64,000 nt of DNA, from the NCBI GenBank assembly GCA_964619585.1, contig CAZUCO010000003.1, forward strand, positions 11,304 through 75,303, in the 5' to 3' direction. How positions within the stretch are numbered: the stretch's first letter is position 1; each line of letters begins with the position of its first letter. The position numbers and the translations under genes are program-made. Below the pieces are notes generated by a model. It searched no databases and had not been told where the DNA came from. It worked only from the letters and a program-made list of their open reading frames with translations. Of this stretch, positions 32,941 through 45,109 are shown piece after piece. Origin of the DNA: an uncultured Candidatus Saccharibacteria bacterium. Lineage in GTDB: Bacteria > Patescibacteriota > Saccharimonadia > Saccharimonadales > Saccharimonadaceae.

Positions 32941-35088
32941 TTAGAATCGTGGCGGCAATTCACTCACGTAGTCAGTAGTGGCGACTGGCGTGCCGCTACC
33001 ACTGCCGAACGACGATAGATGTGCATCGGGTCGCAGATTAAATACTTCTGCGGATTTGTTCATACTGTTTTTCTTCTCCTCATTAGAAGCACCGTCAAGC
33101 GTACTTCCTGCGGTTCGGAAAAGATAGATTTTTCCAGCGTACACGGGACCATTAAATCGAAGCTGCGTACCACAAACCTCTGTTGAGAGCTTTGCCCCTG
33201 GATTATTACGATCTATTTGCGAACATGTATTGATCCAACCTTCATCACTTTCCGTGCCTGTAGTTATCAGCCATGGATCAATCTGTTCAACGTTTTCACT
33301 TATATCAAAGCTCTTCGCAAAGATCCGTACTCGAGGGAGCTTTGAGATACCGGTGTAACTATTTGCATATTTCAGATCATTACTGATAGTAAATATACCG
33401 TCACACACGTAATCGTTACGTCCAGTCAAGTTTACATTGCCACTACTACAGACTGAGGTGGCACCCTGTGGCGTCGTAGGGCGATTCGTCACCACACTGC
33501 CAAAGCAGCCATAACTTGGCGATGTAGCTCCTATCGCAGCACATGAATCATTAATATTGCTAAAGGTTAGGAGATTTCTGTTCGCTAGAGTCGAGTTACT
33601 GCCTTTATTAAGTCCAGCGCCAGATGCCATTCCACTGGTTGCTATGCCGCTCTTAGTCTCGTTGTGAATAAGCCCATTAGTGAATACACCGTACTCACCC
33701 CAGCTGCCATATATACCATTAACACCGGCTTGGGTAATAACTGTCAGACTTGTCGATATAGCTAAACTGCCGCCTGGCAGACTTGCGTTGCCCACAACAC
33801 GCAGGTCACCACCCCATACCTGAACAGAGGGTTGTCTACCCGACATTGAACAAGTCATATTACTATGACGCCACCCGCTCTTTTGAGGGGTAGGGTTCCG
33901 GACAGAAGTCATATAGCAGATCACTTCACCTAAAGCTGCGTCTGGCTCATCCGAAAAGTTACCGGTATCTGCTGGCGATGCAGGGCCACTCTTGATTGCG
34001 TCGTCACATGTCACCATATCTCCAGAAGCCCGAGCGGCTGCCGTAGCATAGGTACATGGGCTACTAGAAGAATCAGTATAGGCGGCATTTTGTGCAGTGT
34101 CCTTTGGCCAGGTCTTAAATTTCAGCCGCGCGACCTCCCATGGATGGCTACCATACACATCACCCGACCCAGGGGCCTGTGTTACCCTACCTCTAGTCTG
34201 GAACTTCATCGGGTCAGTGGAGTAGCGCGGGATTGAGTTGATAGTCGGAACTAAATTATAGGGGCCAGAGTATCTCCATGAGTAGTTAACTGTCACCGTT
34301 CGACAAACACTCGTGTCTGACTGCCCAGCGCCTTGACCTGTATACCAAAAATACTGACAAATATCGCCGCTTAGACTGTCACTACCACTCGACCTGGTGC
34401 CACTATGTACCTTGCCCGTAAGACGAGGGACAGGTAGTGAACGGACTTGATCATTGTTGCTAGGGTTTCCACTCGCAGGCCGGTCTTTCTTCTGCATAAT
34501 CAACGATTTGAATATACCCGTTGTGCAGTCATGGTTATGACCTGGTATGTTACGGTGTCGTTTATCAGTTGGCGATTCTGCTGCTTTACCATTAACTGCG
34601 CACCCCAACGACGGGTTTACCTTGTCATTACTCGTACCTTTGTCGATGTACTTTACGCAGTCCCAGGCAATATTCTCAAGTACCCCACCAACATTTGTTT
34701 GTCCACCTCCATAATATCCAGCGTTTGGACAAAATTTGGGACTAAAAATAGCATAGGATTCAGTGCTCTTGTCACACTCGCGCCATTGTACATTCGTTAT
34801 AAAGTTCAGCGTGCTTTCTGGTGAGCCAATAGTGATATCAGCACCCGTGATCCAGGCTTCAAAATTTGGCTTATCGCGTCCTTTTGAACAGAGCTTACCG
34901 CTAGGACTAGTTGGTGATACACTGTCCACGCGGGCAGTTAAAGTACCTCCGTTAGATGTGATTATCGTATTAGCTTGTGCAACTTCAGTCGGCTGCGATG
35001 CCAACAGAAAAGAAAAAAAAGCCACACTAGCTGCCACGATGAGAAAAATTCGTGATAGCCAGTTTGTTTTCAGCCTTCGGATAAGCAT
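32941..35088 (-). CDS. Large secreted Cys-rich protein of unknown function, first gene of the T4P operon
   Basis: Start at MLIRRLKTNWLSRIFLIVAASVAFFSFLLASQPTEVAQA (signal peptide or anchor). 715 aa with 18 Cys by my count, rich in Ser, Gly, Thr and Asn. I recognise no family motif. The stop is 53 nt upstream of the pilM start. Confidence 0.6.
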   Translation of the reverse strand: MLIRRLKTNWLSRIFLIVAASVAFFSFLLASQPTEVAQANTIITSNGGTLTARVDSVSPTSPSGKLCSKGRDKPNFEAWITGADITIGSPESTLNFITNVQWRECDKSTESYAIFSPKFCPNAGYYGGGQTNVGGVLENIAWDCVKYIDKGTSNDKVNPSLGCAVNGKAAESPTDKRHRNIPGHNHDCTTGIFKSLIMQKKDRPASGNPSNNDQVRSLPVPRLTGKVHSGTRSSGSDSLSGDICQYFWYTGQGAGQSDTSVCRTVTVNYSWRYSGPYNLVPTINSIPRYSTDPMKFQTRGRVTQAPGSGDVYGSHPWEVARLKFKTWPKDTAQNAAYTDSSSSPCTYATAAARASGDMVTCDDAIKSGPASPADTGNFSDEPDAALGEVICYMTSVRNPTPQKSGWRHSNMTCSMSGRQPSVQVWGGDLRVVGNASLPGGSLAISTSLTVITQAGVNGIYGSWGEYGVFTNGLIHNETKSGIATSGMASGAGLNKGSNSTLANRNLLTFSNINDSCAAIGATSPSYGCFGSVVTNRPTTPQGATSVCSSGNVNLTGRNDYVCDGIFTISNDLKYANSYTGISKLPRVRIFAKSFDISENVEQIDPWLITTGTESDEGWINTCSQIDRNNPGAKLSTEVCGTQLRFNGPVYAGKIYLFRTAGSTLDGASNEEKKNSMNKSAEVFNLRPDAHLSSFGSGSGTPVATTDYVSELPPRF

Positions 35089-35150
35089 ATGTATTATATT
35101 AAACAGCAAGTGCAACGTACATGCAAACACATGTGGTGATTCCCTGAAAT

Positions 35151-35205
35151 GAAGCAACCCCACCCCCCGTGCGATGATGCACGAGAGGCGGGGTTTGGTT
35201 GCTTC
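35151..35205 (-). terminator. GC-rich hairpin (terminator-like, no U-tract) after the island-1 gene
   Basis: GAAGCAACC..CCCC.CGTGC-gatgat-GCACG..GGGG..GGTTGCTTC, 5 nt after the TGA. Confidence 0.5.
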
Positions 35206-35210
35206 CAGGC

Positions 35211-35906
35211 TCACTGCAGCCGACGGGCGGCGCAGTACGAGGTCGCTTCCCGAGCATCCCGGAGCTGCGCCCGGTACGCGACGACGTCCGACTTCGCGTG
35301 CCTCACCATGACCTTGGCGCCGTTGAGCTGGACCTTGGCCTTCCGGAGGGCGACCTTGGCCCTGCGGACCTTCTTGGCCGCGCGGTGCTTCTTGCCCTTC
35401 TTGGCCTTGCTCAGCGCCTTCTGGGCCTTGACGACGGCCCGCTTGGCCTTGTTGAACTGAGCCATGGCCTTGTTGAACTGAGCCATGGCGTTGACGAGAA
35501 GCTGCTGCTTCGTGGTGGCGTCGTCGTTGCCGCCGCCACTGGACGAGTAGTACTCCACCGTCTCAGTCCGGGGGTTGGCAGTGCCGACCCCGTAGGTGAT
35601 GGTGACGAAGTTCGTGGCCTGGTAGGCCTCGTCGGCACACAGGACGACTCCGTTGCCGTAGCCGACGACTGTCGCCGACTGGGAGCCGTAGGTCGGATCG
35701 CTGTACTTGATCTCGATCTTGGTGGTGTAGTCCCGCACGTCACTCTGGAACGTGAGCCGGTCCGACGGAGCGCTCTGCCCCATCACGTACTTGCCCGCGA
35801 CGTACTGGACGCAGCCCGGGCCACACGGAGTGGCTCGGGCAGGCACTGTGCCGTAGGTCGTCAGCCCGAAGGCCAAAGCAACCAAGAGCACGAGAAATCT
35901 CCTCAT
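35211..35906 (-). CDS. Exported protein with a Lys/Ala-rich helical C-terminal tail (high-GC, foreign-looking)
   Basis: The signal peptide is MRRFLVLLVALAFGLTTYGTVPARA. Third codon positions are almost all G/C. The SD GGAAGGA lies 6 nt before the ATG. Competing ORFs on other frames have L/R/G/V/D-rich shadow composition. Confidence 0.7.
   Translation of the reverse strand: MRRFLVLLVALAFGLTTYGTVPARATPCGPGCVQYVAGKYVMGQSAPSDRLTFQSDVRDYTTKIEIKYSDPTYGSQSATVVGYGNGVVLCADEAYQATNFVTITYGVGTANPRTETVEYYSSSGGGNDDATTKQQLLVNAMAQFNKAMAQFNKAKRAVVKAQKALSKAKKGKKHRAAKKVRRAKVALRKAKVQLNGAKVMVRHAKSDVVAYRAQLRDAREATSYCAARRLQ
35445..35486. repeat. Perfect 21-bp tandem duplication inside the island-1 gene
   Basis: GGCCTTGTTGAACTGAGCCAT occurs twice (35445-35465 and 35466-35486) and encodes AMAQFNK-AMAQFNK. 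Confidence 0.95.
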
Positions 35907-36196
35907 GTTGGTCCTTCCGGTAGGTAGGATGAATCGTAGAGCCTGAAAGTTAAATGTGCCCCCGCGGAAAGCGGAATTACATCAACGCTTCCAGGACACT
36001 GCGATCCATACGGTGTACAGATTACCTAAATTATCTCATAAAGCTACACAAATAGAAAGCACAAGTAGTTTGATTATTCAAGGATTAAATCTACAACGAA
36101 GCTGTGGATACTTATTCAGATCACTTAACAAATAAGCCAAATCCCCTTACGCTTCATTGGATACGAACGGATATGGTGATCCTACCCCTGTTTTGT

Positions 36197-36202
36197 TATA
36201 AT
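36197..36202 (+). promoter_or_regulatory. Extended -10 promoter of ychF (leaderless or near-leaderless)
   Basis: TGTTATAAT, with only 8 nt between the -10 element and the ATG at 36211. No SD is present. Confidence 0.5.
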
Positions 36203-36210
36203 ACTCACAT

Positions 36211-37290
36211 ATGTCACTCTCGATCGGCATCGTAGGTCTCCCCAACGTCGGCAAGTCGACGCTTTTTAATGCGCTTACTAATAGCGAGATTTTGGCCGCC
36301 AACTATCCATTCGCTACGATCGAGCCAAATACTGGTATCGTGCCAGTGCCCGACGAGCGACTCAACGTCCTGAAAGATATATATAACTCTGAGAAGATCC
36401 TCCCTGCAACAGTCACATTTGTTGACATTGCCGGTCTGGTGGCAGGTGCAAGCAAAGGAGAAGGTCTCGGCAACAAATTTCTCGCCAATATTCGTCAGTG
36501 TGATGCGATTGTACACATCGTACGTGCTTTTCATAGCAGCGATATCCTCCGGCACGACGACAGTGAGGTAAACCCCGAAGCAGATATTGAGATCATCAAT
36601 ACCGAGCTTATCTTGGCCGATCTAGAAACACTGCAAAAACGCGTACCTGCCCTGCAAAAAGAAGCCAAGGCCAAACCAGCCGCACGTGAAAAACTCAGCT
36701 ACCTCGAGAGTCTTATCCGTCATCTCGAGACAGGCACGCCACTATCTGGCCTCCCTTCTCTTGATACTGAAGCAATCGCAGACCTCCACCTTCTAACCGC
36801 CAAGCCGGTTATCTACGCATTCAATGTTGACGAGGCGACACTGGTTGATAGCGAAGCACAGGCAAAGTTAAACACTCTCGTGGCGCCAGCCCGAACACTT
36901 TTTGTGTGCGCCAAGCTCGAAGAAGAACTCAAAGGCCTCGATGAAAGCGATGCCAAAGAACTGCTTGAGAGCTATGGAGTAGAAGATACTGGTCTTGTAC
37001 AGATGATCCATGCCGCATATGAGACGCTGGGACTACAAAGCTATCTGACTGCCGGACCAAAGGAAGTGCGAGCTTGGACGATCAAGCGAGGCTACACTGC
37101 ACCACAAGCTGCAGGGGTGATCCACACTGATTTTGAACGAGGTTTTATTGCTGCACAAATTGTTGATTATGATGATCTCGTGACTGCCGGCAGCGAACAA
37201 GCAGCCAAGGCAGCTGGAAAAGTACGCACTGAGGGCAAAGACTATGTCATGCAGCCCGGCGATGTCGTAGAATTCAGATTTAACGTTTAA
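36211..37290 (+). CDS. ychF: Ribosome-binding ATPase YchF (Obg-family)
   Basis: IGIVGLPNVGKSTLFNALT, a C-terminal TGS-like domain (VRAWTIKRGYTAPQAAGVIHTDFERGFI) and normal GC (31/60 in 36241-36300). Confidence 0.95.
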   Translation: MSLSIGIVGLPNVGKSTLFNALTNSEILAANYPFATIEPNTGIVPVPDERLNVLKDIYNSEKILPATVTFVDIAGLVAGASKGEGLGNKFLANIRQCDAIVHIVRAFHSSDILRHDDSEVNPEADIEIINTELILADLETLQKRVPALQKEAKAKPAAREKLSYLESLIRHLETGTPLSGLPSLDTEAIADLHLLTAKPVIYAFNVDEATLVDSEAQAKLNTLVAPARTLFVCAKLEEELKGLDESDAKELLESYGVEDTGLVQMIHAAYETLGLQSYLTAGPKEVRAWTIKRGYTAPQAAGVIHTDFERGFIAAQIVDYDDLVTAGSEQAAKAAGKVRTEGKDYVMQPGDVVEFRFNV

Positions 37291-37325
37291 GGAGGGGTTC
37301 ACCCGCCCCCTCCGTTTCATTTTTG
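37291..37325 (+). terminator. Intrinsic terminator of ychF
   Basis: GGAGGGG-ttcacccgc-CCCCTCC followed by GTTTCATTTTT. Confidence 0.65.
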
Positions 37326-37430
37326 GAGTAAATCCAAAAAATCACTCCACCCTCAAGTCTCCATCGCCTATGGCGACTGTCGACTTGCTCAGTTTACACT
37401 TCGTTATAAAAATTCTTTAGAAATTAAACT

Positions 37431-38392
37431 AGCGGAGCGTCCGCCAGAGCAGACCGGCCATTTCTGGCTGATCCACTCCGGCGAACACCCCGCGAACATC
37501 ACGACCCCGGCAGGCAGTACAGCCTGGCATCCTTCCGCGGAAGGCGGTACTTCCCGGTCGCAGTGATAGCCACCCGGAGGACCTGCTCACCGGGCGCCAG
37601 CTCATCGTCGAGCACGAGCACCAGATCACCGTCGCCGAAGCTGAGGTCGTAGCGTCGCACGACCACCTGACCGTTGGCCTGCTTGATCCGCACCCGGAAC
37701 TTCGACTTCGGCGTCAGGTTGACAGTACGGGGCCGCTCCTGCAGTGAGAAGTGGTACTCCCGGATCTGACACTCACCGGGCGGGATCGAGTTCGTCTTCC
37801 AGACGAACCGCTTGGTCCACCTGGCCGGCCGCCACCAGTCGAAGACGATCGGCTGCTTGGTCAGGGTCCGCTTGGTAGCCGGATCGATGACCAAGATGTA
37901 CCACTCGACACCACTCCCCCGCTTGATCGCGGGGAGGTGGTACACCATGGCCGTGTTGGCCAGTTGAGGAACGGTGAGATCGTCAGGACCGAAGTCGCTC
38001 TCCGATACACCGAACGCGAGCTGGACGGAGTAGTCGCCGGTGACCACCCGCACACGCGGGCGGCCTTTCCGGTCAACTTTCATCGGTACCAGCACGTCGG
38101 GGAGATGGGACGAGTCGTCGGTAGCCGACGACACCGCAGCCACCTTGGCCATGATCACTGGCTGGCCCGTCTCACGCAGAGACGAACACATTGCAACCAG
38201 TAGCGCTGCTACAAGCAACAACGCTCCGATCATGGTGAGGCGAATCTTGGTTGAGCGAGTCATCACTGACTCACCACCTTTCTTGGGTGTTGAGGGGGAA
38301 GGTGATGTAAAAACGCGCTCAGAAAAACTTCCGAGCACTTCTTTGCGCGCGTTTACAGTCACGGCACAACGAGATTAATTATAGCATAATCT
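37431..38392. other. High-GC compositional island 2 (single-gene cassette)
   Basis: 36/60 G+C in 37921-37980. Shadow ORFs occur on both strands. Imperfect direct repeats, TTCTTTAGAAATTAAA (37412-37427) and TCTTTTAGAAAGTAAA (38390-38405), lie at the edges. Confidence 0.7.
37499..38263 (-). CDS. Membrane-anchored / lipoprotein-like exported protein of unknown function (high-GC, foreign-looking)
   Basis: The start is at MTRSTKIRLTMIGALLLVAALLVAMCSS. The SD AAAGGTGGTGA lies 7 nt upstream. Codon usage is G/C3-rich. The track's longer start at 38362 has no SD. Confidence 0.65.
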   Translation of the reverse strand: MTRSTKIRLTMIGALLLVAALLVAMCSSLRETGQPVIMAKVAAVSSATDDSSHLPDVLVPMKVDRKGRPRVRVVTGDYSVQLAFGVSESDFGPDDLTVPQLANTAMVYHLPAIKRGSGVEWYILVIDPATKRTLTKQPIVFDWWRPARWTKRFVWKTNSIPPGECQIREYHFSLQERPRTVNLTPKSKFRVRIKQANGQVVVRRYDLSFGDGDLVLVLDDELAPGEQVLRVAITATGKYRLPRKDARLYCLPGS

Positions 38393-38423
38393 TTTAGAAA
38401 GTAAATATATGGAAAAGGTCCGG

Positions 38424-38456
38424 CATCTCGTCTCGCAACAAGACGAACGAGATGCT
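38424..38456 (-). terminator. Hairpin terminator after tlyA
   Basis: GCATCTCGT...ACGAGATGC overlaps the stop and is followed on the minus strand by CGGACCTTTTCC. Confidence 0.5.
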
Positions 38457-39168
38457 AAACGATTCTCAGAAGATAGAACCGCTCTCGATTACCCTTAGCG
38501 CCGGCAACTTCACTATCCTTTTTGTCTATAGTCATAAAGTAACGCTTCGACCAAGCTTCAAAATCGCGCAAGATAGCACGACGAACTGCATCGTTTTTGA
38601 TAACACCTTTGTTGATCTGCTCCTTACCAGCCTCAAACTGCGGCTTCAGCATAGCAACTATCTTCGTATCACGATTAGAGATTGCAGCAATGTGAGGCAA
38701 AATCTCGCGTAAACTGATAAAGCTCACATCCATAACGACCACGTCTGGAGGTACAGCAGGAGTAAAGTCCCGAATGTCCGTCTTTTCATGAAGCTCGATT
38801 CGCTTGTCACCACGGAGACTCGGATGAAGCTGCTCGGTGCCAACATCGACAGCAATCGACTTAGTTGCCCCGTGTTGCAAAGCATAGTCCGTAAATCCGC
38901 CCGTGCTACTTCCCACGTCGAGAATCACTTTACCACCAAAATCTACTCCGAGTGCTTCCGCAACACTTGCAAGCTTGAGACCTGCTCTACTAACATATCG
39001 CTCACTGGCCGTAAGCTTTACGGCAATCTCTTTATCTACCATATATCCTGGCTTTGTCACTGTTTTATTATTGACCATCACCTGACCAAGCCGTATCAGA
39101 TTAGCCGCCTGTGAACGTGACTGAACAAGTTGTTTCGTGACGAGCAGTTCATCGAGCCGTTGTCTCAT
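38455..39168 (-). CDS. tlyA: TlyA-family rRNA 2'-O-methyltransferase
   Basis: N-terminal S4 domain (RLDELLVTKQLVQSRSQAANLIRLGQVMVN) and an FtsJ-type SAM motif (ILDVGSSTGGFTD). Confidence 0.85.
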   Translation of the reverse strand: MRQRLDELLVTKQLVQSRSQAANLIRLGQVMVNNKTVTKPGYMVDKEIAVKLTASERYVSRAGLKLASVAEALGVDFGGKVILDVGSSTGGFTDYALQHGATKSIAVDVGTEQLHPSLRGDKRIELHEKTDIRDFTPAVPPDVVVMDVSFISLREILPHIAAISNRDTKIVAMLKPQFEAGKEQINKGVIKNDAVRRAILRDFEAWSKRYFMTIDKKDSEVAGAKGNRERFYLLRIV

Positions 39169-40895
39169 GGGTACATAATCCTCTCAATATCTCTAGTAAT
39201 CTCGGCAATTTTAGCATACGAATACCCCTTGGTCATTACCACAATAACGTACGTCCCTTTAGGATGACGAACGATTGCAGCATCATGTACATAATCCCAC
39301 AAAAAACCAACTTTGTCGTAAACAGTGCCACCAGCACCAGCTGGAACACCAGATCTATATGGATGTACACTGAGCGAGTGCAGCAGGCGGTCACGTTGAC
39401 TCGCCGACATCAGACTTCCCTGCTCAAGCCTCGTCATATAGTTCATCAAGTCGCCAGCAGTCGTATGATTTGCAGTAGGGTTTGTAAATGTAGTTCCTCT
39501 CGAAAAGCCCTGCCCCCAGATAAATGCGTTTAGTTTGTCTCGTCCAGCTTGCTTGATCCACGCCTCAGCACAAGGGTTGGTGCTTGCAATCGTCATCCGA
39601 TCAAAACAGCCAGACACGGTCGTGTCCAACCACGGATCACCCCAATGTATCTTACCTTTGTTCATCTGATCAAACAGCCACAATGCCACATAGAGTTTGT
39701 ACGTACTTGCGCTCACCGTACTTTCATAAGCACGGCCACCCGCTGTCCATCCCTTACCACCGAGCTGTTTAACTGCTATACGAATATTCTGTGTACTCGT
39801 CGTGTACTGAACATACGCCGACAGACCAGCCTGCGACGAACTATAGCGACGTTCATACACCTCTGGAGACGGAACTGAAACTAACAATACATCAAGTGCA
39901 ACGCTTGGCTCTCCACTCTCTATCGCATTAGTTAGTTTACGAGCCAAGTCTTCTGCATTGACGGCTTGGCCAAGCTTGCCCTTTTGACGTGTGCTCACAG
40001 CCCCATCGACCAGAACAACTCGCGTTGGTGTAGGTTGTTTGCCCATCTTTGCCGTTAGACCAGAAGCATAGGCCTTTAGTGCTGATTGATTAATGGAAAG
40101 CAGATAATGATCGCCTTCACGCTTCACCACCAACCAAGAAATGATCGCCTTCTTATCAGGTATGATCTTTACACCATTTGGTGCGAGTAATTGATACGAG
40201 CGAGTAATGATTGTCTCAGCCTTGTGTTTGATAGGTTCGACAGCACTGTCCGATACAGTTGGCGCCTGCTTCGATGACGGCACCGTAACCTTTGTTTCGC
40301 CCAGATGAAAGCGCGCACCAGTCAGTGCCGCAGTAACACTATCGACTGTGACTTTTTGGCCGTCTTTCGCTGCTGTCACGACTAGCTGATTATTCTTGAT
40401 GGCTAAGCTCGCATCTTTAGGTGGTGTTGATAGCAACGCAGCAAGCTTTTTGGCACTAGCCCCCAGCTGCTCAGACGCAAATACTACCTTATATTCATCC
40501 ACTACGGGTCGCTGCCAAAACACAGACAAAGGAATCAGCCGTTGCGTCAGTGGATAATCTATTAGGCCCTGGACTTGACTGTCGACATCAACTGATGCAC
40601 CTGCAACACTGAGTAATTGCGTTGTTTCTGTTGAAGATGTCGTAAGTCGGACACTACTCTGCTGGAATTTCTTCTGTAAATCAGCCGCTAGCTTGACCTT
40701 ACTCACACCGCCGACGGAACGACCAGCAAGCGATGCATATGGTACGGCAACGTGGTCCGGATAGCATAGTTGCCACACAACCTGTCCGCCAGCCAAAACC
40801 AGCAGCACACAAACAGGAACCAACCAGTATCGTTTCTTCCAATGATGTTGTCGTGTTGGTTTTGTTAGCTGCAGAGCTCGCTGCTTAGCGCTCAT
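39165..40895 (-). CDS. Membrane-anchored serine hydrolase (class A beta-lactamase / PBP-like C-terminal domain)
   Basis: N-terminal TM helix. The C-terminal domain carries STYK (SxxK), STN (SxN) and DKVG (KTG-like). A 4-nt overlap with tlyA suggests an operon. Confidence 0.55.
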   Translation of the reverse strand: MSAKQRALQLTKPTRQHHWKKRYWLVPVCVLLVLAGGQVVWQLCYPDHVAVPYASLAGRSVGGVSKVKLAADLQKKFQQSSVRLTTSSTETTQLLSVAGASVDVDSQVQGLIDYPLTQRLIPLSVFWQRPVVDEYKVVFASEQLGASAKKLAALLSTPPKDASLAIKNNQLVVTAAKDGQKVTVDSVTAALTGARFHLGETKVTVPSSKQAPTVSDSAVEPIKHKAETIITRSYQLLAPNGVKIIPDKKAIISWLVVKREGDHYLLSINQSALKAYASGLTAKMGKQPTPTRVVLVDGAVSTRQKGKLGQAVNAEDLARKLTNAIESGEPSVALDVLLVSVPSPEVYERRYSSSQAGLSAYVQYTTSTQNIRIAVKQLGGKGWTAGGRAYESTVSASTYKLYVALWLFDQMNKGKIHWGDPWLDTTVSGCFDRMTIASTNPCAEAWIKQAGRDKLNAFIWGQGFSRGTTFTNPTANHTTAGDLMNYMTRLEQGSLMSASQRDRLLHSLSVHPYRSGVPAGAGGTVYDKVGFLWDYVHDAAIVRHPKGTYVIVVMTKGYSYAKIAEITRDIERIMYP

Positions 40896-40937
40896 AGCAC
40901 TATTGTAACAAACCTTGCAACCTGCCAAGAAGTACTG

Positions 40938-41498
40938 CTATTTCTTTCGCTCTCGGTACTCACCTGTTGAGGTATCGACACTGACGATGTCACCCGTCTT
41001 GATAAATGCCGGCACACGAATAGTAAGGCCAGTTTCAAGCGTAGCGTCCTTCATTACCGCGCTTGTTGTGTCACCTTTTACGACATCTTCTGCGTATGTC
41101 ACTTCAAGGTATAGATTCTTGGGAAGTTCTACATTGATTACACGCTCACCGAAGAACTGCAGCCCAAGCATATCGCCTTCTTTCAGGTAGTTCGATGCAC
41201 TGTCGACAATAGAGCGTGAGAGCTCAAATTGCTCAAAGCTTTCAGGATCCATAAAGAAAAAGGTGTCACCATCGCTGTACAAATACTGAACACTTTTTGT
41301 ACTCACATCTGCCGGCTCAATCTTGTCTTGCCCCTTAAATGTCTTGGGGATCAGACTCCCATCAAGTAAATTCTTGAGCTTCACGTTCACAATCGAACCG
41401 CCGCGACCCATGACTTTTTGGCCATACTCAACGACTCGATATGGGATGCCGTCTATCTGACAGACTGTGCCTTTTTTTAGATCAGTTGGCTGGTACAT
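40938..41498 (-). CDS. efp: Elongation factor P
   Basis: MYQPTDLKKGTVCQIDGIPYRVVEYGQKVMGRGGSIVNVKLKNL is a canonical EF-P. Confidence 0.9.
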   Translation of the reverse strand: MYQPTDLKKGTVCQIDGIPYRVVEYGQKVMGRGGSIVNVKLKNLLDGSLIPKTFKGQDKIEPADVSTKSVQYLYSDGDTFFFMDPESFEQFELSRSIVDSASNYLKEGDMLGLQFFGERVINVELPKNLYLEVTYAEDVVKGDTTSAVMKDATLETGLTIRVPAFIKTGDIVSVDTSTGEYRERKK

Positions 41499-41501
41499 AC
41501 G

Positions 41502-41744
41502 TTACTCTCCTGCGTTATGCTTTTTATGCCGAGTTGCAATTTTTACCCCTACCCCTATAGTTATTAGCCCCATCATCCCAAGCACTGACGTAGCAAGATA
41601 ATCTGGGTGACCTTTGGGGGTGCTTGGAGCTTCTGGGATAGCAACTCTCGGCTGTTCAGCGGAATCAAACCCCTGCTCGTCGATATTGCCAGCGGTATCC
41701 GGGTAGCTGCCATCTCCGGGCTCTACACTTTCCGGTGCAACCAT
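41502..41744 (-). CDS. Small acidic protein with a C-terminal TM anchor (tail-anchored)
   Basis: 80 aa. The N-terminal part is acidic and Pro-rich, followed by VLGMMGLITIGVGVKIA and then RHKKHNAGE. It is tightly packed between rpsR and efp. Confidence 0.45.
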   Translation of the reverse strand: MVAPESVEPGDGSYPDTAGNIDEQGFDSAEQPRVAIPEAPSTPKGHPDYLATSVLGMMGLITIGVGVKIATRHKKHNAGE

Positions 41745-41750
41745 ACTACG

Positions 41751-41951
41751 TTATCCCTGAGTGACAAATGGTAGTAGCGCAAGATGACGCGCACGCTTGA
41801 TTGCAACAGCAAGCTGACGTTGCTGTTTGATACTGAGGCCAGTTTTTGAAATTGGCTCGATCTGCCCATATGCGTTGATATAGCGCTGTAGGGTCTTTAC
41901 GTCTTTGTAATCAAAGTAAGTTACTTTGTCTTTCTTGTATCGTTTCATCAT
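41751..41951 (-). CDS. rpsR: 30S ribosomal protein S18
   Basis: [50 protein letters not shown]. Confidence 0.9.
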
Positions 41952-41969
41952 ATCTCCTCAACCATCCTC

Positions 41970-42410
41970 TTAGAATGGGATTTCACTTAAATCAATTGGT
42001 TTATCATCAATGTCACTTGGAGCAACATCTTTTTGTGCTGCAGGGCGCGGCGCACTTGATGTTGATGAGCTAGCACCAGCATCGCCGCCATTTGGTCCAT
42101 CAAGAAATGTTACATCAGTTGCAACAACCTCGATGCGTGAGCGCTTTTTGCCAGTCTCTTTGTCATCCCAGCTATCTTGGCGAAGACGACCTTGCACAAG
42201 ACAGCGGCGTCCCTTTGATAGGTATTGGTTTACGAGCTCACCAAGCTTCTCCCACGCTGTCACGTCAAAGAAGTCCGCCTGGTCATCTGCACCAGCCCGG
42301 TCAACCGCAAGGCTAAAGCTTGCAATAGTTTTCCCTGTAGTCGTTGTGCGCATCTCTGGGTCGCGTGTGAGACGTCCCATCAATATCACTTGGTTGATGC
42401 TCTTTGCCAT
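41970..42410 (-). CDS. ssb: Single-stranded DNA-binding protein
   Basis: OB fold (INQVILMGRLTRDPEMR) and an acidic tail ending DLSEIPF. Confidence 0.9.
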   Translation of the reverse strand: MAKSINQVILMGRLTRDPEMRTTTTGKTIASFSLAVDRAGADDQADFFDVTAWEKLGELVNQYLSKGRRCLVQGRLRQDSWDDKETGKKRSRIEVVATDVTFLDGPNGGDAGASSSTSSAPRPAAQKDVAPSDIDDKPIDLSEIPF

Positions 42411-42415
42411 ACCCT

Positions 42416-42763
42416 CTACTCCTCTTCTGATTCGTTTTCAGCTGACTTTGCCTGTGCAGCTGCAAGCTTGTTACGTTCTTTCTCTTCAACTTTCACGAGA
42501 AGATGACGCATGACGTCATCAGTAATCGTAAGCGCATTAGTAATCTTCTGTGGTGCATCTGCTGGAAGTTTCACATCTAGTAGTACATAGACAGCAAATT
42601 CTTCTTTGTTTACTGAGTAAGCAAGTCGCTTCTTGCCCCAGTTGTTCTCTTTAACAACCTCACCACCGTGTGTTGTGACGAGATCGCGTACTTTCGCAAG
42701 GCTTTTTTCAAGATCAGCCTCAAGATCTGGGTGAATAAGAACTGTTAGCTCGTATTCTCGCAT
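42416..42763 (-). CDS. rpsF: 30S ribosomal protein S6
   Basis: MREYELTVLIHPDLE...WGKKRLAY is a canonical S6. Confidence 0.9.
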   Translation of the reverse strand: MREYELTVLIHPDLEADLEKSLAKVRDLVTTHGGEVVKENNWGKKRLAYSVNKEEFAVYVLLDVKLPADAPQKITNALTITDDVMRHLLVKVEEKERNKLAAAQAKSAENESEEE

Positions 42764-42871
42764 AGTTTTCCTCCTCTGGAATCCTTATGGATGTTTACGC
42801 TCAAACGTAAACTGAGTTGATAACTATGCTATTTTACCATAACTACCTCGAGAACACTAGTCCGACTACGC

Positions 42872-45109
42872 TTAGAATCCGTCGCCGCTGTCTTCTGACT
42901 CATCGATACTCGAGATCAATACTTCACGCGGCCGAGCACCATCGGCAGGACCCACCACACCTTGCTCTTCCATCTCCTCGATAATCCTTGCTGCTCTTGC
43001 ATACCCCACACGTAGTCGCCGCTGGAGCAGGCTTGTCGAAGCTTTGCCGCTCTCAACTACCACCCTGAGGGCGTCTTTGTAGAGATCGTCACCACTTCCG
43101 CCATCAAAGTCCATTACAACACCACCCTTACCATTGAGCTGTACGGGCTGTGAAACAATCTCGTCGTTGTACTGCGGCGCAGATTGATCACGCAGATGAT
43201 CAGTGATCTTAATAACTTCTTCGTCCATTACCCACGCACCCTGGATACGTTTTGGCTTGCCCATATCGGCGGTCTTCATGAGCATGTCGCCCTGTCCTAG
43301 GAGTTTCTCGGCACCAACCTGGTCAAGAATAGTCCTTGAATCAATCTGCGACGCAACGGTAAAGGCGATACGTGCCGGCACGTTTGCCTTTATAAGCCCG
43401 GTAATGACGTCAACACTTGGGCGCTGCGTGGCAAGTACAAGATGAATACCAACTGCACGAGCTTTCTGCGCCAGTCGTACGATCAGCGCCTCGACATCGC
43501 GTGCGGCCACCATCATAAGATCAGCCAACTCGTCGATCACAACTACAATGTACGGCATCGCACCGTCTTCGACTTGCTGCTTGTGGCCTTCCTCGTCCTC
43601 AACCGCAATTTTGGTTGCACCACTTGCTACCTTTTTGTTGTAGCTGGCGATATCGCGCACTTTTTCTTCAGCAAGTAACTTGTAGCGTCGTTCCATTTCG
43701 TTAACCGCCCACTTGAGCGCACTGATTGTCTTCTCCGGTTCGGTGATTACTGGGGTGAGAAGATGCGGAATATCTTCATACGGCGCCATCTCAACCTGCT
43801 TTGGATCAACAAGTATCAGCTTCATTTCACTCGGGCTATTTCGGTACAGGAGGCTGGTAAGGAGTGTGTTGATCATCACCGACTTACCAGAGCCAGTCTG
43901 ACCAGCAATCAAAAGGTGGGGCATTTTGTTGAGCTTGCCAACCACGGCATCACCAGAAATATCGCGACCGATTGCAAACCCAAGTGGTTCATGCGCTGTT
44001 TGCCACTGCTTCGACTCCAGGATTCCTCGAAGACGGACATCGGCTGCCTTGCGATTCGGCACTTCGATACCAACCGCTCGTTGACCAGGAATTGGTGCCT
44101 CGATACGAAGGCTTTGTGCAGCCAAGTTGAGAGCAATATTTGTTTCAAGTGCCGAGATACGGGTAAGCTTCACACCAGCCGGCGGTTTCAGTGTATACTG
44201 CGTTACCTTTGGTCCAATATTAGCACCTTCCATCTCAACATCGATACTAAACTCTGCCAAAGTGTCTTTGATCGTCTGAGCATTGTGCTGTACGTCACCC
44301 GCATCAGCTGGATTTTGCTTCTTTTCGAGTAGGTCAAGGCTTGGTGATTTCCAGTTTGGATCGGTAACCGCAACAAGAGCTGCCTGTTCTTCAGCAGCTT
44401 TATCACTCGCCACACTGCTCTTAAGGCTCGATAGTCGTGCTGCCTTTTTGCTTTCGTTTGGATCAAGCGTCGGCACACCAGCATTGAGCTTAAACTCACC
44501 AATATCGCTTGATTTTGGTGCATCAGCGCTTGCGGCCTTCTTCATCACGGCCACGTTTTTAGCGTCTTCCTCACTCACTCTACTCAGCTCACGAACCTTT
44601 TCGATGATACTAGCTGGCGATATCCTCAGTACAAATAGCAGTGTAATAGCGATGAGAAGAATATAGATAAAGATAGCTACTCCGCTATCGACCATAGACA
44701 GCATGGCACTATTGAGTATCATGCCGACGAATCCACCACCTTCATTTTGCCACGCTCCGCCTTTTATCACCCCGAATAACCCCGCACACCAAGCGATCAA
44801 TGCAATAGTGGCAAATTTCATAACAAACGGGAGACGGTTTTCTTCCGCGCGAAATATCTCAATAGCGACATAACTAAAGATGAATGGAAGCGTATAAGTA
44901 GCCCATCCAAATGTTGTTAACATTGCTCCTTGGAGCCATTCCATAACTGGCCCGCCAACACCAAACCACGCGATAATCAGCAAGATCGAAAAAGCGATCA
45001 GTGCAACGGCACCAACCTGGCCCCAAAAACCCGCCGGCAATGTGTGCTGTGGCGAAGCGACTTTCTTGGTGCTTTTTCTCTTTCTTGAGGTGTTTCTTTT
45101 CTTTGCCAT
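42872..45109 (-). CDS. ftsK: DNA translocase FtsK
   Basis: Four N-terminal TM helices, a linker, the motor domain with Walker A GQTGSGKSV and a C-terminal gamma wHTH domain (TSLLQRRLRVGYARAARIIEEME). Confidence 0.9.
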   Translation of the reverse strand: MAKKRNTSRKRKSTKKVASPQHTLPAGFWGQVGAVALIAFSILLIIAWFGVGGPVMEWLQGAMLTTFGWATYTLPFIFSYVAIEIFRAEENRLPFVMKFATIALIAWCAGLFGVIKGGAWQNEGGGFVGMILNSAMLSMVDSGVAIFIYILLIAITLLFVLRISPASIIEKVRELSRVSEEDAKNVAVMKKAASADAPKSSDIGEFKLNAGVPTLDPNESKKAARLSSLKSSVASDKAAEEQAALVAVTDPNWKSPSLDLLEKKQNPADAGDVQHNAQTIKDTLAEFSIDVEMEGANIGPKVTQYTLKPPAGVKLTRISALETNIALNLAAQSLRIEAPIPGQRAVGIEVPNRKAADVRLRGILESKQWQTAHEPLGFAIGRDISGDAVVGKLNKMPHLLIAGQTGSGKSVMINTLLTSLLYRNSPSEMKLILVDPKQVEMAPYEDIPHLLTPVITEPEKTISALKWAVNEMERRYKLLAEEKVRDIASYNKKVASGATKIAVEDEEGHKQQVEDGAMPYIVVVIDELADLMMVAARDVEALIVRLAQKARAVGIHLVLATQRPSVDVITGLIKANVPARIAFTVASQIDSRTILDQVGAEKLLGQGDMLMKTADMGKPKRIQGAWVMDEEVIKITDHLRDQSAPQYNDEIVSQPVQLNGKGGVVMDFDGGSGDDLYKDALRVVVESGKASTSLLQRRLRVGYARAARIIEEMEEQGVVGPADGARPREVLISSIDESEDSGDGF

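Follow-up and report, generated by a model that had tools for sequence, protein, structure and literature searches.

The 64,000-nucleotide stretch of DNA analyzed here (hereafter, the window) comes from an uncultured Candidatus Saccharibacteria bacterium of the order Saccharimonadales (GenBank assembly GCA_964619585.1, contig CAZUCO010000003.1, positions 11,304 to 75,303 of the forward strand). Within it, a GC-rich gene at positions 37499-38263 on the minus strand, predicted to encode an exported protein of 254 amino acids, lies between the convergent housekeeping genes tlyA and ychF. The initial annotation, made from the sequence alone, regarded this region ("island 2") as a recently inserted single-gene cassette flanked by imperfect direct repeats. 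Our analysis showed that the region is one self-contained transcription unit, with an extended -10 promoter, a leader of ~108 nt, the coding sequence (CDS) and a long hairpin terminator, and that the gene belongs to a small, previously unnamed family that is found in exactly the tlyA/ychF slot wherever a neighbor is visible. The high GC content is almost entirely at third codon positions, in every lineage and whatever the genomic background. On balance, we think it probable that the "island" is not a recent import but a long-standing resident gene, which encodes an exported protein, evolves fast and has its synonymous sites kept rich in GC by the demands of nucleic-acid folding. The features of the locus, in the order in which the gene is read, are as follows.

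38424-38456, minus strand: tlyA terminator hairpin, GCAUCUCGU...ACGAGAUGC then CGGACCUUUUCC, directly upstream of the promoter.
38378-38405, minus strand: promoter, with a -35 element TTTACT (38405-38400), a 16-nt spacer and a TG-extended -10 element TGCTATAAT (hexamer 38383-38378).
38264-38372, minus strand: leader, ~108 nt (RNA fold and alignment with L001, the locus of the closest homologue).
38372-38340, minus strand: predicted 5'-terminal leader hairpin H1 (RNA fold).
38338-38315, minus strand: predicted leader hairpin H2, followed by a U-run and terminator-like (RNA fold and terminator scan).
After H2, minus strand: pyrimidine-rich leader linker ACAUCACCUUCCCCC, whose CACCUU (38304-38299) is able to base-pair with the Shine-Dalgarno (SD) sequence AAGGUG (38280-38275).
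38274-38255, minus strand: predicted leader hairpin H3, enclosing the AUG (38263-38261) (RNA fold).
37499-38263, minus strand: CDS, 254 amino acids (open reading frame, AlphaFold2 model and family alignment).
~38254-38180, minus strand: predicted N-terminal hydrophobic helix, residues 4-28 (AlphaFold2).
Within 37499-38263, minus strand: predicted disordered linker, residues 31-51 (AlphaFold2).
37829-38095, minus strand: predicted beta-sandwich domain 1, residues 57-145 (AlphaFold2, predicted local distance difference test score, pLDDT, ~80-95).
37511-37807, minus strand: predicted beta-sandwich domain 2, residues 153-251 (AlphaFold2).
37429-37498, minus strand: 3' untranslated region (UTR) with a long GC-rich compound hairpin terminator, GCGGGGUGUUCGCCGGAGUG...CUCUGGCGGACGCUCCGC then UAGUUUAAUUU.
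37291-37428, no strand assigned: spacer of ~138 bp from the ychF stop to the gene's terminator, holding the ychF terminator hairpin (37291-37325, plus strand) and the left "repeat".

The GC content of positions 37430-38270 is ~63%, compared with ~47% elsewhere, and in 300-nt steps it runs at 0.56-0.65 over 37300-38349 and at 0.43-0.50 on both sides. A 1-kb profile of the whole 64 kb contains just two rises, at 35-36 kb (island 1, described below) and at 37-38 kb. The boundaries of the latter are sharp and coincide with the ends of the gene, and a direct count agrees with the 36 G+C in 60 nt given earlier for 37921-37980. GC content at the first, second and third codon positions of the gene (GC1, GC2 and GC3) is 0.62, 0.45 and 0.80, respectively, while the GC3 of ychF, tlyA and a nearby beta-lactamase-like gene is 0.43-0.47. 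Relative to 56 other open reading frames (ORFs) of the window (mean 0.459, standard deviation 0.051, maximum 0.575), the GC3 of the gene has a z-score of +6.7, and the GC anomaly and the G/C3-rich codons described in the initial annotation are both borne out. The three shadow ORFs listed there (37751-38203 and 38040-38378 on the plus strand, 37861-38076 on the minus strand) all exist, and the gene and its shadow ORFs are the only ORFs between ychF and tlyA. The gene lies within a longer minus-strand ORF (37499-38362), in which an internal ATG at 38263 gives the 254-residue product. This ATG is the start held in common with the closest homologue, in L001 (MTRSTK), and the stretch upstream of it is non-coding, since it contains 1-nt indels between the window and L001. 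The ORF list and the L001 alignment therefore agree with the earlier choice of credible gene, start codon and SD sequence.

The promoter, which is located where the initial annotation had placed it, has 10 of 12 consensus matches plus the TG (TTTACT-16-TG-TATAAT; consensus scan). Upstream of every family member with sequence available we found TATGCTATAAT, or TATGGTATAAT/TATGCTATAGT, after TTTACA/TTTACT; in all family loci with upstream sequence the pattern is TTTAC(A/T), ~17 nt, TATG(C/G)TATA(A/G)T, and we predict from this conservation that the promoter is functional. As the tlyA terminator stands just before it, the gene is insulated as its own transcription unit, and in L001 and L087, too, the family promoter comes after a hairpin and U-run. 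At the other end, a terminator scan recovers the base of the 3' hairpin (37447-37429). The terminator architecture GCGGAG-N5-GCCGGAG...CUCCGGCGG-N-CUCCGC is found in L001, L083, L087 and L100, and other long hairpins take its place in L084/L102 and L088/L103.

The leader and 3' UTR are conserved above the CDS: 108 of 119 aligned leader positions and 54 of 68 positions of the 3' UTR are identical between the window and L001, compared with 65% nucleotide identity in the CDS, even though flanking four-fold sites are saturated. The leader has a predicted fold of -43.7 kcal/mol (z=-3.8), which was equaled in stability by none of 200 shuffles. When 10 divergent leaders were folded as single sequences, most showed a common plan: a 5'-terminal hairpin from nucleotide 2 or 3 (UUGUG...CGCAA; seven of 10), a second hairpin (nine of 10), a pyrimidine-rich linker after it (ACAUCAC, CUUCCCC; most leaders) and a start-codon hairpin (seven of 10), the arms of which differ by lineage (GAGUCA/UGACUC, GGAGGUCA/UGGCCUCC, ACGGA/UCCGU). 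RNAalifold, run on a MAFFT alignment of seven leaders, returned no consensus pairs; the hairpins thus appear to be conserved in kind, not in register. A leader profile searched with nhmmer over ~1.1 Mb matched family loci only, and Rfam gave no covariance-model match at E<=1 over 34500-39500. H2 (38315-38338, minus strand) consists of GUGCUCGGAAGUUUUUCUGAGCGC then GUUUUUAC and fits the pattern of an intrinsic terminator within the 5' UTR; a hairpin plus U-run occurs at the same place in L001 and L103, while the other leaders are without the U-run, and H2 may act as an attenuator in some lineages. We also scanned metagenome contigs for a leader pattern (TATGCTATAAT-N6-8-GTTGT-N45-70-ACATCAC) and discarded it, as the 10 loci recovered were all unrelated to the family; among them were sites upstream of a 380-385-residue polytopic membrane protein and of a 225-residue protein.

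The product is predicted to begin with an N-terminal export signal or anchor and to continue through a flexible linker into two FN3-like beta-sandwich domains. Support for this architecture came from an AlphaFold2 model based on an 11-member alignment (pLDDT 74), and from Foldseek, whose top PDB matches were tandem FN3 pairs (probability 0.97-1.0, E 2e-4 to 1e-3); structure prediction by these two methods had been called for in the initial annotation. The helix modeled at residues 4-28 is consistent with the N-terminal signal or anchor proposed there. The lipobox [LVI][ASTVI][GAS]C is not matched by the window protein, which has LVAM|C, with Met at -1; its relatives have GQC or AQC then AxA sites, or no Cys, at this place. 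The ~225-residue mature part had been described as having no recognizable motif, and searches of Pfam, NCBIfam, PHROGs and PDB sequences with the 254-residue product indeed gave no significant match, the best PDB sequence match being an S-layer lipoprotein (E=0.18, not significant). The Pfam fn3 profile does not match the window protein and gives scattered sub-threshold matches among the 11 members. Neither an SLH nor any other cell-wall-anchoring domain was found by Pfam and related searches, and there is no LPXTG-type sorting signal, the window protein ending in ...RLYCLPGS without a hydrophobic tail and its relatives ending differently. The protein is most likely a cell-surface or envelope protein, serving as a binding module or structural component at the surface of the epibiont, and an exposed binding or structural role would be the most economical reading of these features.

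The best matches of the neighboring ychF are from metagenome-assembled genomes of Saccharibacteria/Saccharimonadales (65-80% identity). Farther down the same ychF scan, ranks 43-80 (38 loci, L045-L082) are nearly all Actinomycetota at 59-65% identity, with one titled "bacterium"; these may reflect either the behavior of a peptide-pattern search or a real affinity with the host phylum. For the island 2 protein, a word-indexed protein search returned only two proteins, itself and one 51%-identical relative, and an exhaustive HMMER search with that pair over 1.84 billion representative proteins returned 10 clusters of 177-258 residues. Ten family members have a hydrophobic N-terminus (signal or anchor). 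The 177-residue call, P0005 (L100 1773-2306 / L101 6001-6534), starts within the conserved leader (ATGCAAAG...), and its true start is likely a GTG ~84 nt downstream, which would give a family-like MTRNKK... N-terminus.

All nine non-self clusters were looked up and found in the slot, adjoining tlyA and/or ychF wherever neighbors are visible; no neighbor could be identified on the 1.4-kb contig L102. The longer contigs share the synteny of the window, S6-SSB-S18-efp-(beta-lactamase-like)-tlyA. Since the family is in the same slot of the Saccharimonadales, we conclude that the gene is a resident of the sub-lineage, not a recent import. The initial annotation had remarked that a compact genome would normally have almost nothing at this place. 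ychF and tlyA are convergent neighbors in 39 related species representatives (surveyed in L003-L044, from locus position ~7075, the ychF end, to the tlyA end). The remark holds for about half of these species, in which the spacer is <100 bp, but not for the rest, where variable cargo of 0.5-4 kb lies in between. This makes the junction a variable slot, in keeping with the intuition behind the remark. The cargo elsewhere consists mostly of genes for proteins with an N-terminal signal or transmembrane segment, and also includes type IV pilin-like genes, ABC transporter genes and several GC-enriched genes (L003, L020, L030, L034 and L042). An HMM search of the ORFs of 40 such loci recovered no remote relative of the family, the other GC-rich genes of the slot included.

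Signs of mobility were sought and not found: tblastn against plasmids and phages recovered no family homologue; there is no integrase or mobility gene among the ORFs around the slot (35.5-40.5 kb); no tRNA lies near the gene, the nearest being >18 kb away; the window holds no second, silent or partial copy of the gene; and there is no repeated boundary element, such as an integron attC site would provide, shared with island 1 or neighboring GC-rich genes. The family evolves rapidly, with amino acid identities of 25-54% where tlyA keeps 64-74%. Higher genic GC goes with stronger purifying selection in most bacteria (PMC11879095), and the present case is unusual in part because its high GC3 goes with fast protein evolution.

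In all 10 loci compared, the GC3 of the family (0.73-0.87) is above that of the housekeeping neighbors (0.43-0.77), with a mean logit shift of 1.09. How long this difference has persisted can be gauged from tlyA, whose four-fold sites are saturated: identity between the window and L001 is 0.32 (0.28 expected), and in deeper pairs it is 0.26-0.27 (0.25-0.27 expected). Divergence at the four-fold sites of the family itself is lower than in tlyA (0.51, compared with 0.31 expected). According to a two-state estimate, at least ~1 substitution per site per lineage would leave a GC3 excess of at most ~0.1 even from a starting GC3 of 1.0; the excess observed in low-GC genomes is 0.25-0.36.

The CDSs also show an excess of predicted folding. 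All 11 family CDSs were more stable than synonymous-codon shuffles of themselves (z -1.7 to -6.8, mean -3.87). The z-scores of 19 controls averaged -0.61 and went no lower than -2.63 (Mann-Whitney p=1.5e-5). The excess is spread along the CDS. For the gene in the window, z was -3.56 with a whole-gene shuffle and -3.53 with a stricter null that preserved GC position by position. In the latter, only G<->C or A<->T third-position swaps within a codon box were allowed, so that GC was kept everywhere and ~50-66 nt changed. Under this null, five family genes gave z-scores of -3.1 to -4.2, and 19 controls gave -1.95 to +1.12; the controls were six window genes, six actinobacterial genes (GC3 0.83-0.96) and seven housekeeping genes of higher-GC Saccharibacteria (GC3 up to 0.78). 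Two genes that accompany the family gene in L001, those for a sortase and for a 553-residue protein, gave -5.9 and -5.4, respectively, and island 1 gave -2.4. Short palindromes, exact inverted repeats of at least 7-8 nt and regional G3/C3 skew were tried as explanations of the folding excess, and none accounts for it.

Based on these results, we propose that the synonymous sites are kept GC-rich because selection favors extensive base pairing in a nucleic acid, in the simplest case the mRNA. The 5'-terminal hairpin, the long 3' hairpin and the folded CDS would together make for a long-lived message, and the hairpin that covers the SD sequence and AUG would gate its translation.

Several observations weigh against this proposal. 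The logit slope of family GC3 on background is 0.37±0.13 and not 1, as a constant additive force would give. Polarized synonymous changes from strong to weak base pairs outnumber the reverse by 68:25 when summed, a lean that would fit ongoing decay, yet the ratio depends strongly on outgroup GC, and the result is therefore ambiguous. The antisense strand keeps most of the folding excess (z -2.7 to -5.9, weaker than the sense strand in four of five cases), so that selection could be acting on single-stranded DNA and not on mRNA; the z-scores themselves are predictions based on minimum free energy. An HMM search of every ORF in the loci of the 40 closest GTDB species representatives recovered no family member, and bearers of the family are interleaved with non-bearers in a single-gene ychF neighbor-joining tree, a pattern that requires either repeated loss or lateral exchange between relatives. 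The comparisons cover 11 loci, mostly on short contigs. The FN3-like similarity of the product is at the level of the fold only (TM score ~0.3 for the two-domain model), and we infer the strength of the promoter, the stability of the mRNA and the location of the protein at the surface.

The flanking strings on which the cassette interpretation had drawn deserve separate comment. Positions 37411-37428 and 38388-38405 match at 15 of 18 places, a score reached by one of 500 dinucleotide shuffles and by five of 500 random pairs of AT-rich windows, and this is nominally above chance for a comparison that was picked post hoc. The right "repeat" (38386-38405) is made up of the -35 element and spacer of the gene's promoter, and the left one (37406-37428) corresponds to the AT-rich tail that follows its terminator, where a spacer that is inverted in L001 has its edge. 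The pair was not found in orthologous loci (L001, L087 and others). The suggested target-duplication or att origin is not upheld; we read the strings as a probable likeness between two AT-rich transcription signals. The spacer itself, between the ychF stop and the gene's terminator, is inverted in L001 (4905-5010) relative to the flanking genes (local alignment score of window 37281-37361, plus strand, against L001: 77 in opposite orientation, 21 in the same one). L087, L100, L104 and L084 lack the spacer altogether, and there the terminator directly adjoins the ychF stop. The inverted spacer holds the ychF terminator hairpin and a TTTTTGGAGTAAATCCAAAAAA palindrome, and AT-rich TTTA(A/G)...TAAA strings lie at its edges.

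How, then, could such a gene have come to lie where it does? That a foreign high-GC fragment was joined into a Saccharibacteria contig during assembly or binning might be suspected from the abrupt composition jump in a metagenome-assembled genome. The idea is scarcely credible here: an independent Logan assembly of raw reads (SRR8893623) is 100% identical over 34911-43263, which spans both islands and all junctions, and the junctions are therefore not an assembly artifact; the same arrangement recurs in 10 other samples; and the CDS runs on without a break from a promoter and leader that are AT-rich and of native style. A recent transfer of a single-gene cassette from a high-GC donor, for example an actinobacterial host, into the space between ychF and tlyA, with att-like or target-duplication repeats left behind, is the interpretation with which we began. 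It draws on the abrupt GC3 anomaly, on the exported product being an ORFan, on the rarity in shuffles of the flank similarity, on the variability of the junction in related species and on the growth of cultivated Saccharibacteria as epibionts on Actinobacteria (PMC10633639). Yet the same slot and the same anomaly are found in at least nine other diverged lineages whose flanking synonymous sites are saturated, and relatives carry the same gene at the same site, which argues against a cassette, with the same anomalous rather than ordinary composition. Homologues occur only in Saccharibacteria-type contexts: none was found outside the slot context among the 1.84 billion representatives, plasmids and phages. 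Nor is there an integrase, tRNA or mobility gene; the "repeats" are pieces of promoter and terminator that orthologous loci do not conserve; and actinobacterial genes are without excess folding. Recent insertion is in effect refuted by the synteny, and we consider it very improbable.

Transfer could instead have been ancient, a single event that brought the gene from a GC-rich donor to the forebear of all bearing lineages, with the high GC3, not yet fully ameliorated, as a fading relic and the folding as its by-product. This would explain why family GC3 varies less than the background, as if from a common high start, and why polarized changes lean from strong to weak; it also sits well with the sporadic GC3 outliers of mixed function in other Saccharimonadales loci and with the absence of the family from the nearest species representatives. 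We nevertheless regard it as quite unlikely, given that the two-state estimate leaves far less excess than is observed in low-GC genomes, that no donor-side homologues were found in the searches above, and that the leader and terminator are conserved and native in style. In addition, the folding excess rests on the choice of G versus C and is absent from actinobacterial genes, a pattern that a relic would not predict. A further explanation is that the slot is a recombination hotspot, in which alleles are swapped among relatives using the leader and terminator as homology arms, while GC-biased repair or more efficient selection raises GC3. In its favor are the non-coding flanks conserved around a much more divergent CDS, and the C-terminal domain falls into two deep allelic classes that do not follow the ychF tree, L087 grouping by ychF with the window and L001 yet carrying the other class. 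The lower divergence of the family's four-fold sites and the partial homogenization of its GC3 across backgrounds point the same way, Saccharibacteria are naturally competent (PMC10187176), and in most bacteria higher recombination rates go with higher GC (PMC11879095). Exchange alone, however, cannot set GC3 at its level, because family GC3 exceeds even the highest background; the bacterial effects are correlations across core genes, credited to selection and not to biased conversion (PMC11879095); biased conversion would not predict G-versus-C choices that raise folding; and the composition boundaries at the gene ends are sharp. A Mantel test of family against tlyA distance (r=0.18, p=0.20) is uninformative, because the lineages are nearly star-like and about equally distant; the history would include losses, replacements or exchange among relatives. 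Overall, we judge a hotspot unlikely as the source of the anomaly, and prefer selection on nucleic-acid structure in a long-resident gene.

Similar GC3 and folding patterns are seen in the neighboring surface-protein and sortase genes of relatives and, more weakly, in island 1. In L001 (1453-3592) and L087 (2969-5786), the interval from tlyA to the family gene contains a large, repeat-containing exported protein (553 and 721 residues, respectively) and a sortase, which adjoins the family gene in both loci but not in the window. The large gene of L001 has internal repeats of ~216 nt, and it and the L001 sortase have GC3 of 0.75-0.84 along with the stricter-null folding scores given above (-5.4 and -5.9). 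The 721-residue gene of L087 has a GC3 of 0.84 (z -4.8), and the sortase there is near background (0.63).

Island 1 (35211-35906, minus strand; leader 35907-36030) encodes an exported protein of 231 residues and has a GC3 pattern in common with island 2. The public gene call at this place is an opposite-strand shadow ORF (35199-35927, plus strand). The protein has one homologue, at 52% identity, in the Saccharimonadales assembly GCA_036405235.1 (L105 10001-10552), where its GC3 is 0.85 and that of its neighbors 0.40-0.49. The promoter and leader are conserved between the two, and the downstream neighbors look alike (similar N-terminus and intergenic sequence), while the upstream neighbor differs, with trxB in place of ychF. 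Folding is weaker than in island 2, with z-scores of -2.5 and -2.4 in the window and -0.7 in L105. The island 1 gene also contains a perfect 21-bp tandem duplication at 35444-35485 (TGGCCTTGTTGAACTGAGCCA, twice), which encodes a repeated AMAQFNK heptad in the Lys/Ala-rich C-terminal half.

Among 450 long ORFs in the loci of related species representatives, seven (~1.5%) are GC3 outliers, lying >0.18 above the median of their locus; they include L004 3926-5518, L020 7180-7782, L038 5489-5896 and 12094-12687, L039 9218-9583 and L018 3883-4626. GC3-outlier genes of unrelated Saccharimonadales species gave folding z-scores of -2.3 to -4.0. A hydrophobic N-terminus was present in 43% of outliers, compared with 30% otherwise, which, with seven outliers only, is not convincing as a link to export.

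As a tentative extension, and one we hold with clearly less confidence than the account of island 2 itself, the Saccharimonadales may hold a small set of genes to a codon regime of its own, with GC-rich third positions and a G-versus-C choice tuned to make the message hyper-structured, and these "armored" mRNAs would be long-lived and translationally gated. Its proposed members would be the family, the neighboring large surface protein and sortase, several of the GC3 outliers and, weakly, island 1. If this were true, armored mRNAs would enable a very small cell whose transcription capacity is limited to produce its surface proteins when they are needed, for example upon contact with a host, and "GC islands" in such genomes would mark selection on RNA and not import.

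Single genes of anomalous GC content are routinely counted as horizontal transfers; in Saccharibacteria they are taken to be gifts of the high-GC actinobacterial hosts. In the present case, the anomaly is a stable, lineage-spanning property of a resident gene whose predicted folding is unmatched by synonymous shuffles. If our reading of island 2 is correct, composition-based calls of horizontal gene transfer in genomes of the candidate phyla radiation need a synteny and folding control, and the gene would be a strong natural case of gene-specific synonymous selection for nucleic-acid structure in bacteria. Candidate surface proteins for the epibiont-host interface, most of which are unannotated, could moreover be located through the family, its conserved leader and the ychF/tlyA slot. 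Genetic systems for Saccharibacteria now make recoding experiments feasible.

The gene belongs to a new, unnamed family of exported proteins built of tandem beta-sandwiches, whose codon and structure regime is both unusual and conserved, and it resembles several known systems in part. Lawrence-Ochman amelioration is the framework within which horizontally acquired genomic islets are understood, and island 2 is like such an islet in its abrupt, gene-sized GC3 anomaly, its exported protein with no recognized domain and its species-variable junction. In contrast to an acquired islet, its position is kept in at least 10 diverged lineages, its anomaly is undiminished and its codon choice is tuned to folding, and it has no mobility genes, tRNA, conserved repeats or homologue outside the lineage. 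The Lactobacillus slpA gene combines an efficient promoter, a long, stabilizing, structured 5' UTR, biased codons, a signal peptide and two poorly conserved domains (PMC3666127), and a predicted promoter, a structured 5' UTR, codon bias and a two-domain product are likewise found here. Unlike slpA-type S-layer genes, the gene has its start codon under a predicted hairpin and a codon bias unlike that of the adjoining ribosomal-protein genes, and its mature product is just ~22 kDa, with no SLH or wall-binding domain detected. FN3-containing envelope proteins, including SEML1_0890 of Southlakia epibionticum, are reported to be essential in a cultured Saccharibacterium (PMC10633639). The tandem FN3 fold predicted here via Foldseek suggests a likeness to such FN3/Ig-like surface modules at the level of the fold only; the differences are that no Pfam fn3 or PDB-chain sequence match was found and that there is no catalytic or lectin partner domain.

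Borrelia vls is a GC-rich, antigenically varying surface-protein locus in an AT-rich genome, and with it island 2 shares a persistent, gene-specific GC elevation in a fast-diversifying, putative surface-protein gene. In contrast to vls, there are no silent cassettes or partial copies in the window and no GC skew across the gene, and the excess in island 2 lies at third codon positions and is tied to folding.

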